From a virus, in IMG/VR virus record IMGVR_UViG_3300045988_061744, positions 107,235-171,234 of that record: 64,000 bases of DNA. One strand, given 5' to 3'. Made by a program: the position numbers and the translations under genes. The notes under the pieces were generated by a model. That model searched no databases, was not told the DNA's origin, and saw only the letters and a list, made by a program, of their open reading frames with translations. This document shows, in pieces, positions 34,034 to 35,073 of the stretch. Every line of letters starts with the position of its first letter. Position 1 is the first letter of the stretch.

Positions 34034-34513
34034 TCAGCCAAATATACAAATCATTGAAGATATAAAGAATACAGCTCCTCCTACTACACTTATCCAACCT
34101 CCAGCATCTTCATCGTTTTTAGATAGTCTACCTCTACCAGTTAATAGCATAAATACTGATATTCCTAATAGTATGGTGCCTACTACAATTCCAGCTATCT
34201 CCTTATAGAGGAGTTTCCACACTACGATAGTTATTGCTGTTTGTCCTAGGTCGGATTCTGCTATTCTTATGGCTGAATCTTCAACTGCTTTTAAGGTTTC
34301 ATTGACTGCTACGCCAATTTCCTTACCAAGATTTGCATACTCAGAAACTTCCTTGATTTCACCCTTTATAGCTTTCTCTGTTGTTATCTTCTCGATTTGA
34401 GTTCTAGTTTCACCAGGCAACTTATCATAGTCTTCTTGTGATATAGTTATCTGAGAAAAAGCTGCTACGCTCATCCAGAGCATAGCAAGCATAAATACAA
34501 GGAACTTTTTCAT
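34034..34513 (-). CDS. secreted/membrane hypothetical protein
   Basis: Signal peptide plus a C-terminal TM segment. Confidence 0.4.
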   Translation of the reverse strand: MKKFLVFMLAMLWMSVAAFSQITISQEDYDKLPGETRTQIEKITTEKAIKGEIKEVSEYANLGKEIGVAVNETLKAVEDSAIRIAESDLGQTAITIVVWKLLYKEIAGIVVGTILLGISVFMLLTGRGRLSKNDEDAGGWISVVGGAVFFISSMICIFG

Positions 34514-35073
34514 TAGTCAAGCCATTCAAATTCTTTACCTTCAAAATGTCTTGCAAAACAAGCATCAAACACTAGCTTTCCAAACTGAGTTGATACATAT
34601 TTGGCAATCTCTTCAGATTTGCACGCAAGCATCCCGACATAGGAATTGGCATTGCCGACGCCATCGCAAGAATAGAAAAAGCCGAGACCCGCACAGCCGC
34701 CACGATACGCGCAGCCGCCCACCAACGCGAATTTCTCGCCCTGATAACGGAAGTGACCAATGACCTCTGCATCCTTCGGAACTGATTTCATTCTAAAGAA
34801 GCGAACCCAGGGATACCATATAGTACCAGTTAACAGATTGAACTTGTGACCTTCATTTAGCGCATCCAAGACTGTCTGCAACTTAGCTAGAGAATTTACA
34901 GATCTATTATAGTAAATAGTATCTCTAGTAACACACCCTAGATAGTTTACAGCATCCTCATAGGTTCTTATCCGTCCCATAATGTTTTCTGGAACGATTT
35001 CAACATTGCCAGTTTCGGCATTATAGATGGGTTTATAACCATCTGGACATTCAATTTCAATTGTCTTTTTCAT
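34513..35073 (-). CDS. DGR target protein 2 (remote), variable region near the C-terminus
   Basis: Contains ...FALVGGCAYRGGCAGLGFFYSCDGVGNANSYVG..., encoded by a GC-rich stretch (34613-34706) that matches the template repeat at 62926-63021, differing at template adenines apart from one terminal position. Confidence 0.6.
   Translation of the reverse strand: MKKTIEIECPDGYKPIYNAETGNVEIVPENIMGRIRTYEDAVNYLGCVTRDTIYYNRSVNSLAKLQTVLDALNEGHKFNLLTGTIWYPWVRFFRMKSVPKDAEVIGHFRYQGEKFALVGGCAYRGGCAGLGFFYSCDGVGNANSYVGMLACKSEEIAKYVSTQFGKLVFDACFARHFEGKEFEWLD
34613..34706 (-). repeat. DGR variable region VR2
   Basis: Manual alignment to the template repeat finds about 22 mismatches, all at template-A positions; other positions are identical apart from one terminal base. 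Confidence 0.6.

Follow-up and report, generated by a model that had tools for sequence, protein, structure and literature searches.

The 64,000-nucleotide (nt) stretch of DNA analyzed here, called the window throughout, comes from the IMG/VR virus record IMGVR_UViG_3300045988_061744 (positions 107,235 to 171,234) and carries a diversity-generating retroelement (DGR) with a template repeat (TR), a reverse transcriptase (RT) and two variable repeats (VR1 and VR2). Our analysis makes it very probable that this is one DGR with one template and two targets, namely the gene of a tail-fibre-like protein, which contains VR1, and a remote gene for a protein of 186 amino acids (aa), which contains VR2. 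An earlier reading made from the letters of the sequence (the sequence-only reading) had proposed that one TR diversifies both proteins, and this proposal is supported by variability specific to TR adenines, by changes at other TR bases that both VRs share, and by the presence of one TR and two VRs per genome. Phage DGRs are understood almost wholly as changers of receptor-binding proteins, and here the same template also rewrites the gene of a small protein of unrecognised fold, which lies amid replication, accessory and tRNA genes.

The TR at 62930-63021 (+ strand) aligned without gaps to window positions 34724-34633 (- strand) over 92 nt, with 70 identities and 22 mismatches. There are 30 adenines among these 92 TR positions, and all 22 mismatches fall on them, an outcome with a hypergeometric probability of 6.3e-15 by chance. 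The confinement of mismatches to TR adenines that was claimed earlier is thus borne out, with no non-A mismatch inside the repeat; the nearest ones flank it, at TR positions 62929 (C/T, on the 5' side) and 63022 (T/A, on the 3' side). The 62 nt of the match that are not TR adenines, referred to as the non-A skeleton, were found three times in the 64-kb window, in VR2, VR1 and the TR, where shuffled sequences would be expected to give none. VR2 is separated from the TR by 28.2 kb and has a G+C content of 0.61, compared with 0.38 in the remainder of its gene, and it retains unmutated AAT codons in its 3' third. The open reading frame, its peptide, the GC-rich character of the repeat, the distance of 28 kb and the opposite strand had all been described correctly, while the interval first given for VR2 (34613-34706) was about 20 nt off and is corrected in Table 1, and the distance from the VR to the C terminus is 39 aa rather than 36 aa.

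Table 1. Features of the DGR, its two targets and the suppressor tRNAs in the window, with the homologue of the remote target in phage Versailles.
Feature	Position	Strand	Description	Match or remark
VR1	62727..62824	+	3' end of tail-fibre-like gene	aligns to TR 62926-63023, mismatches at TR adenines only
VR1 target gene	61029..62849	+	~606-aa tail-fibre-like protein	phrog_5302 'tail protein', 1.8e-68
TR	62926..63023	+	sole template repeat	30 adenines in the part common with VR2
Structured RNA element	63073..63161	+	between TR and RT	sub-threshold Rfam RT-17 (RF03020) match
DGR reverse transcriptase	63165..64000	+	cut by the window end	phrog_1423 reverse transcriptase, 2.9e-101
VR2	34633..34724	-	codons 117-147 of the small gene, LVGGCAYRGGCAGLGFFYSCDGVGNANSYVG	A-only match to TR
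VR2 target gene	34513..35073	-	186-aa protein	phrog_11581 member (9.9e-16)
Suppressor tRNA	43081..43151	-	anticodon CTA	ARAGORN
Second suppressor tRNA	45551..45623	+	anticodon CTA	ARAGORN
Versailles homologue WAK79127.1	ON453897.1 10181-10762 (L120 3863-4444)		between NinB and replisome organiser	annotated 'tail protein'

In order to follow VR2 among relatives, we compared 38 related IMG/VR genomes with target proteins of 68-96% identity; complete related genomes measure 183-192 kb, RT/TR loci were recovered for 31 of the 38, and ongoing activity of VR2 was judged from these between-genome comparisons. VR2 is not invariant across the 38 genomes but hypervariable at the TR-adenine columns, where the mean column entropy is 1.31 bits, compared with 0.07 bits in the non-A columns of the VR and 0.32 bits in the remaining gene. 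Unique sequences made up 35 of 36 VR2 copies and all 28 VR1 copies recovered. Two genomes with flanks that are 99.8% identical over 5.4 kb (L032 and L033) differ at 13 of the 92 VR2 positions. The TR itself is the same as that of the window in most of the 31 genomes, with its adenines intact.

Substitutions at non-A positions of the TR were seen in L044 (four C>T), L047 (those four plus one more) and L050 (one T>C), and in each of these genomes VR1 and VR2 both carry exactly the non-A changes of their own TR. Residual non-A mismatches over the 92 nt shared with the TR number 0-1. As far as sequence comparison can tell, the appearance of these changes in both VRs is the signature of a continuing flow of information from the TR into both sites. 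Each complete genome contains exactly three copies of the skeleton, VR1 and the TR lying adjacent and VR2 remote, and of the three the TR alone is A-rich. These genomes accordingly contain neither a second template nor a third target, and no third target was found in the window either. Of the 22 hypervariable sites, VR1 and VR2 match on average at 7.5 when taken from the same genome and at 7.44 when taken from different genomes, and since agreement is the same within as between genomes, VR2 is not copied from VR1. Comparison of these genomes shows VR2 to be rewritten from the single TR in a manner that is A-specific, directional and repeated.

A few genomes have altered TRs or VR2 copies. In L048 (3762-3859) the 3' third of the TR has VR-like bases in place of adenines, in L058 (3762-3859) the 5' AG adenines are G, and L070 (3760-3857) has a 1-nt insertion; these TRs look partly overwritten or damaged, and their DGRs are possibly heading for inactivation. 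The VR2 of L012 (10346-10443) lacks 6 nt in its 3' part, with the reading frame kept, and the VR2 genes of L035 and L038 show indels together with numerous differences at non-A positions. In some lineages, decay of the remote target may thus be under way.

The outcome at a TR adenine depends on its neighbor. TR adenines before G, of which this TR has nine, are almost always G in both VRs. Across 42 distinct TRs of this RT clade, an A before G was G in 95% of 347 observations and was never C, and at four-fold-degenerate third codon positions it was G in 96 of 100 cases (69 distinct sites). This last count excludes selection at the protein level and indicates a mutational bias, which in practice confines the generation of diversity to about 22 of the 30 adenines in the stretch that the TR has in common with VR2. 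For bRT of BPP-1, the base 3' of the template adenine dominates the error profile, and a slippage (template re-use) model has been described (PMC12875486); the A-before-G pattern is compatible with these 3'-neighbor and slippage effects.

VR1 sits 200 nt upstream of the TR, which begins about 75 nt past the stop of the VR1 target gene. This gene is readable only when eight in-frame TAG codons are decoded, probably as Gln, with TAA and TGA as the sole stops, and its top GenBank matches are tail proteins of crAss-like phages. The cmscan match of the structured RNA element to RT-17 covers the full model length and reaches 29.7 bits (E=0.0014) against a gathering score of 40.4. A weaker match to RT-18 also lies between the TR and the RT; RT-17 and RT-18 are RNA motifs described beside reverse transcriptase genes. 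The RT, which is partial in the window, carries the DGR-clade motifs YADD and IGNYLSQ (GxxxSQ), with the Q of the latter encoded by TAG, contains at least eight in-frame TAG codons and has 557 relatives in IMG/VR.

At the 3' end of the repeats, the sequence-only reading had looked for a shared boundary resembling an initiation of mutagenic homing (IMH) element. All that the two VRs share there is GTCGGG, where the TR reads GTCGAG; at about 6-9 nt in all, this boundary is far shorter than a canonical IMH, and the ~92-nt skeleton and this GTCGGG end are the only features common to the VR1 and VR2 sites. Stems of 5 bp with 4-nt loops lie 3' of VR1 and VR2 (folding z-scores of -1.1 and 0.25, respectively), and about a third of the related genomes have the VR2 stem disrupted with no compensating change. 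At the 5' edge of VR2 (window 34725-34728), most copies have T opposite TR position 62929, and a few (L001, L030, L034, L037 and L038) have C, as does the TR; at TR position 62930, G in place of T is common among VR1 copies. The point at which replacement by complementary DNA (cDNA) ends on the 5' side thus seems to differ from event to event and from one target to the other.

The protein encoded by the VR2 target gene belongs to a family, phrog_11581, that has no assigned function. We found no Pfam domain in the VR2 protein, in 40 family members or in 10 longer (fusion-like) members, and a profile search of PDB sequences gave no match. An exhaustive search for the family returned 237 clusters at 50% identity; most members stand alone as proteins 170-210 aa long and align over their full length, with the core motif LVGGxAxxGxxAGLGxFxS...VG..CKSxEIAxYxSKxFGKLxFxA. 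Structural matches in BFVD were to uncharacterised gut-phage proteins only. Unlike in the C-type-lectin-fold variable proteins of the Mtd, TvpA and TaqVP type, the VR does not lie at the extreme C terminus, since it encodes aa 117-147 of 186 and is followed by 39 aa that are conserved in the family and predicted to fold as two helices plus a strand. Exceptions of this kind, with an internal VR, are known among DGR targets (PMC5758913). Only within the VR does the protein resemble the tail-fibre target (32 aa by BLASTP, 41 profile columns by hhalign); the 31 aa encoded there are 66% identical between the two proteins, and about 11 codons of VR2 are variable. A Kyte-Doolittle scan showed neither a hydrophobic N terminus nor a transmembrane (TM) segment, in agreement with the earlier statement that the protein has no signal peptide.

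Several results weigh against the explanation of one DGR acting on two targets. A canonical IMH of 14-35 nt was not found, the homology of the TR and VR2 stopping 1-3 nt past the last A/G difference, and the 3' flanks of VR1 and VR2 have nothing in common beyond the GTCGGG end. DNA folding of the three 3' flanks gave no significant hairpin, and none is conserved 3' of VR2. There is no Avd-like open reading frame between the stop of the VR1 target (62849) and the start of the RT (~63165), the window ending inside the RT; the paper on Zeta crAss-like phages reports Avd in the Lera group only (PMC12386605). Finally, the AlphaFold2 model of the VR2 protein (pLDDT 88.8) has no fold match in the PDB, the C-type lectin and immunoglobulin folds expected of DGR targets being among those left unmatched. 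The expected fold was thus not confirmed in the model, and a highly divergent C-type lectin fold is still conceivable.

The same arrangement was found in other phages. The only GenBank phage match of the VR2 protein by tblastn was to Versailles, a cultured Bacteroides phage, in which the homologous gene encodes 193 aa and lies 43 kb from a tail-protein/TR/RT cassette. This small gene matches the Versailles TR over ~110 nt with A-only mismatches, and its IMH reads GTGCC, as in the adjacent VR, against TTACC in the TR. Its annotation (Table 1) probably stems from the VR segment that it shares with the true tail target. A literature search found nothing relevant on the Versailles DGR. LoVEphage, which is highly prevalent, has a 194-aa homologue on the strand opposite to its cassette and 15 kb from it, surrounded by genes for a methyltransferase, DUF2400 and PAPS reductase, with an A-only match to the TR and an IMH of CTTGC common to both VRs against CATAC in the TR. 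Phages of ~175 kb, with RTs 63-65% identical to that of the window, encode a 193-aa homologue in a tRNA-rich block; it has 0 non-A mismatches to the TR in ~100 nt, although the circular map puts over 50 kb between the two. Judged by gene content and repeat matches, the combination of an adjacent tail-fibre target with a remote phrog_11581 gene in a non-structural module is present in four unrelated gut-phage lineages, in which the small gene stands amid replication, recombination, DNA-modification or tRNA genes. The hosts recorded, for two of the four, are Bacteroides/Phocaeicola. This recurrence suggests a selected function and not an accident.

The two targets of the window also differ in their coding. 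The plus-strand block of TerL, portal and tail genes is rich in in-frame TAG (15 in TerL and 35 in the portal gene, in addition to those of the VR1 target and the RT given above). The minus-strand block (1-44000) uses the standard code and contains 26 ordinary tRNA genes and one of the two CTA suppressors, together with genes for NAMPT, PRPP synthetase, ATPases and a flotillin-like protein. The VR2 gene lies in this block directly after a tRNA-His gene and has 0 in-frame TAG. It had been assigned to a standard-code early block and called non-structural; the assignment to the standard-code block holds, and 'early' and 'non-structural' are interpretations of the gene's position and coding. Since the RT and the VR1 target need TAG to be read through and the VR2 gene does not, the RT would be translatable only after a code switch that leaves the VR2 gene unaffected.

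Together these results point to the following mechanism. The TR would be transcribed together with the downstream structured RNA, and the RT would be made only once the CTA suppressor tRNAs read TAG. Given this need for suppression, the coding suggests that the RT acts, and mutagenesis takes place, probably late in infection, on genomes near packaging. By analogy with established DGR biology, the RT would copy TR RNA to cDNA while misreading adenines, and the cDNA would replace the homologous stretch at VR1, in the C terminus of the tail-fibre-like protein, and at VR2. The TAG-free VR2 gene, to judge again from its coding, could be expressed as soon as the next infection begins. Its product would be a soluble, non-virion ligand-binding protein from the non-recoded block, with the ~11 variable codons forming a binding surface. 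This surface would be re-randomised during one infection cycle and would serve, in the cycle that follows, against a molecule of the host or of a competitor that itself varies. That the VR2 protein is a non-virion ligand binder is our best guess, suggested by the position of the gene in four lineages, its freedom from TAG and the absence of similarity to virion-docking domains. It is tempting to extend this to phrog_11581 as a whole, as a widespread and unrecognised DGR-diversified non-virion class of soluble intracellular binders that are randomised late and used early in the next infection, a proposal that is tentative and may well prove wrong. If it were true, these binders might neutralise a variable host defence, a surface-modification factor or a competing phage, and the role of phage DGRs would extend from host-range switching to an adaptive intracellular, 'antibody-like' function. 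Such a new role is a real yet unproven prospect, for which the cultured phage Versailles offers an experimental system in which to ask what a diversified, apparently non-structural protein binds.

The alternatives differ in whether they accept VR2 as a target. One that does so, and that we regard as plausible though less likely than not, is that the VR2 product is a virion component, such as a small adhesin or tail accessory protein encoded outside the structural block, so that two host-recognition surfaces are diversified. The phage DGR targets that are understood experimentally are all receptor-binding proteins (PMC10743442, PMC8143477), the distant second target of Bacuni has been interpreted as an adhesin, and both the 66% identity of the VR-encoded segments and the 'tail protein' label in Versailles fit such a role. 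Against this, the gene is never found among structural genes in the four lineages and has no TAG although the structural genes of this phage are TAG-rich, the similarity to tail proteins does not extend beyond the VR, and Pfam searches detected no known virion-docking domain.

The remaining alternatives deny that VR2 is now rewritten from the TR. It might be a relic, once diversified and now unused, the present differences being inherited; the unmutated AAT codons in the window's VR2, the lack of a clear IMH or hairpin, the damaged TRs of L048, L058 and L070 and the fragmented RTs reported in some genomes of a different group, the epsilon crAss-like phages (PMC11054128), could all be taken in this way. 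A relic is nevertheless very unlikely, since VR2 has 0 non-A mismatches in the window and in most genomes while the other columns of the gene have diverged, since nearly all copies are unique and even the two genomes with 99.8% identical flanks differ at 13 VR2 sites, and since recent non-A mutations of the TR have already reached VR2. VR2 might also be rewritten through DNA recombination or gene conversion with VR1, leaving VR1 as the sole true target. This reading is helped by the common skeleton, which permits homologous exchange, and by one genome in which the two VRs share 15 of the 22 hypervariable sites; we consider it extremely unlikely, as VR1 and VR2 of the same genome are on average no closer than those of different genomes and the 5' boundary of VR2 is unlike that of VR1. 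The chance that the likeness reflects ordinary homology or coincidence between lectin-like C-terminal modules, with no DGR involved, is negligible: the shared peptide motif is all that speaks for it, and it is refuted by the A-specificity of the mismatches (p=6e-15), by entropy that is confined to TR-A columns, synonymous positions included, and by non-A changes that co-vary with the TR.

When the one-template, two-target DGR described here is set beside known systems, it resembles that of Bordetella phage BPP-1 (mtd/TR/brt) in several ways: the RT has the GxxxSQ and YADD motifs, the TR follows the target, TR and VR differ in an A-specific manner, and a tail fibre carries a C-terminal VR. BPP-1 has one adjacent target, an Avd gene, an IMH of 14+21 nt and a downstream hairpin, whereas in this phage a further target lies on the opposite strand at a distance of 28 kb, there is no Avd between target and RT, the 3' boundary spans ~6-9 nt, no hairpin is supported and the RT depends on TAG suppression. 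A second target no more than 50 kb off is on record for many phage-associated DGRs (Wu et al. 2018, PMC5758913), and the Bacuni phages F1, F2 and F4 of Bacteroides uniformis have one adjacent and one distant target (PMC8143477). As in those cases, one TR serves both a target beside the RT and another that lies apart from it, at a distance of up to 50 kb in the phage genome. Both Bacuni targets have DUF1566/Fib_succ_major domains and a C-terminal VR and are interpreted as adhesins, whereas the remote target here is a 186-aa protein with no Pfam domain, has its VR 39 aa from the C terminus and is encoded in a non-structural block; the Bacuni genes were not detected by tblastn with the VR2 protein. 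The two-target DGRs of the tentaclin type (PMC10743442) are alike in that one TR serves two protein architectures and one VR is not C-terminal, but both of their targets lie in the cassette and model as C-type lectin domains, while here one target is remote and has no lectin match. DGRs of the Treponema denticola/Legionella type likewise have a template that works in trans and reaches distant VRs, whichever strand these are on; they are cellular elements, however, and their targets are surface lipoproteins with recognisable C-type lectin (CLec) or FGE-sulfatase domains.

For the cassettes of Zeta and Epsilon crAss-like phages, two papers describe targets within the cassette only (a tail-fibre protein or receptor-binding protein, plus extra TR-VR pairs in Lera) and make no mention of a remote small-gene target (PMC12386605, PMC11054128). 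The description of LoVEphage mentions only the tail collar fibre gene upstream of the RT (PMC8525569), and a large metagenomic DGR survey states that remote targets are undetectable by its approach (PMC8144416). Annotation centered on the cassette, as with myDGR or on short metagenomic contigs, misses remote targets. The remote-target architecture is thus already known, while the phrog_11581 target family and its context were not found described in open-access full text.

By published genome features, not by alignment, the window matches a TAG-recoded gut phage of ~190 kb resembling the Zeta crAss-like group, members of which (cthgQ11, ctoVY1; Table 1 of PMC12386605) have 183-189 kb, ~27 tRNAs, a CTA suppressor, ~35% GC, amber recoding and a DGR, with in-frame TAG and GxxxSQ in the RT. 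A megablast of 33500-36500 against GenBank phages gave no match, and tblastn with a neighboring 671-aa protein and with the flotillin-like protein found no close complete genome.

The VR2 gene is flanked by two further genes on its own strand. Upstream, beyond tRNA-His, lies the gene at 35184-35648 (-). The N-terminal ~90 aa of its product recur in a subfamily of the VR2 family, with 37% identity to P0168 at a pairwise E=2e-13, although the probability by hhalign for a match to the family profile is only 51%; the C-terminal half of this product is different and contains no VR. The two may have an N-terminal module in common to which exchangeable C-terminal parts are joined. Downstream, the gene at 34034-34513 (-) overlaps the stop of the VR2 gene (TAATG) and encodes 159 aa with a signal-like N terminus and two C-terminal TM segments. 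Translational coupling to this membrane protein was considered as a clue to function and was dropped, the neighbor in Versailles having no TM segment.

Elsewhere in the minus-strand block, adjoining genes for ribose-phosphate pyrophosphokinase and nicotinamide phosphoribosyltransferase lie at 4303-6707 (-), with PHROG matches of 2e-53 and 1e-137, respectively. Such gene pairs have been linked to the reconstitution of NAD+ by phages against NAD-depleting defence systems. The flotillin-like protein has 657 aa (31011-32984, -), and its best GenBank phage match, at 41% identity, is the 'flotillin family protein' of crAssE-Sib, an epsilon crAss-like phage.

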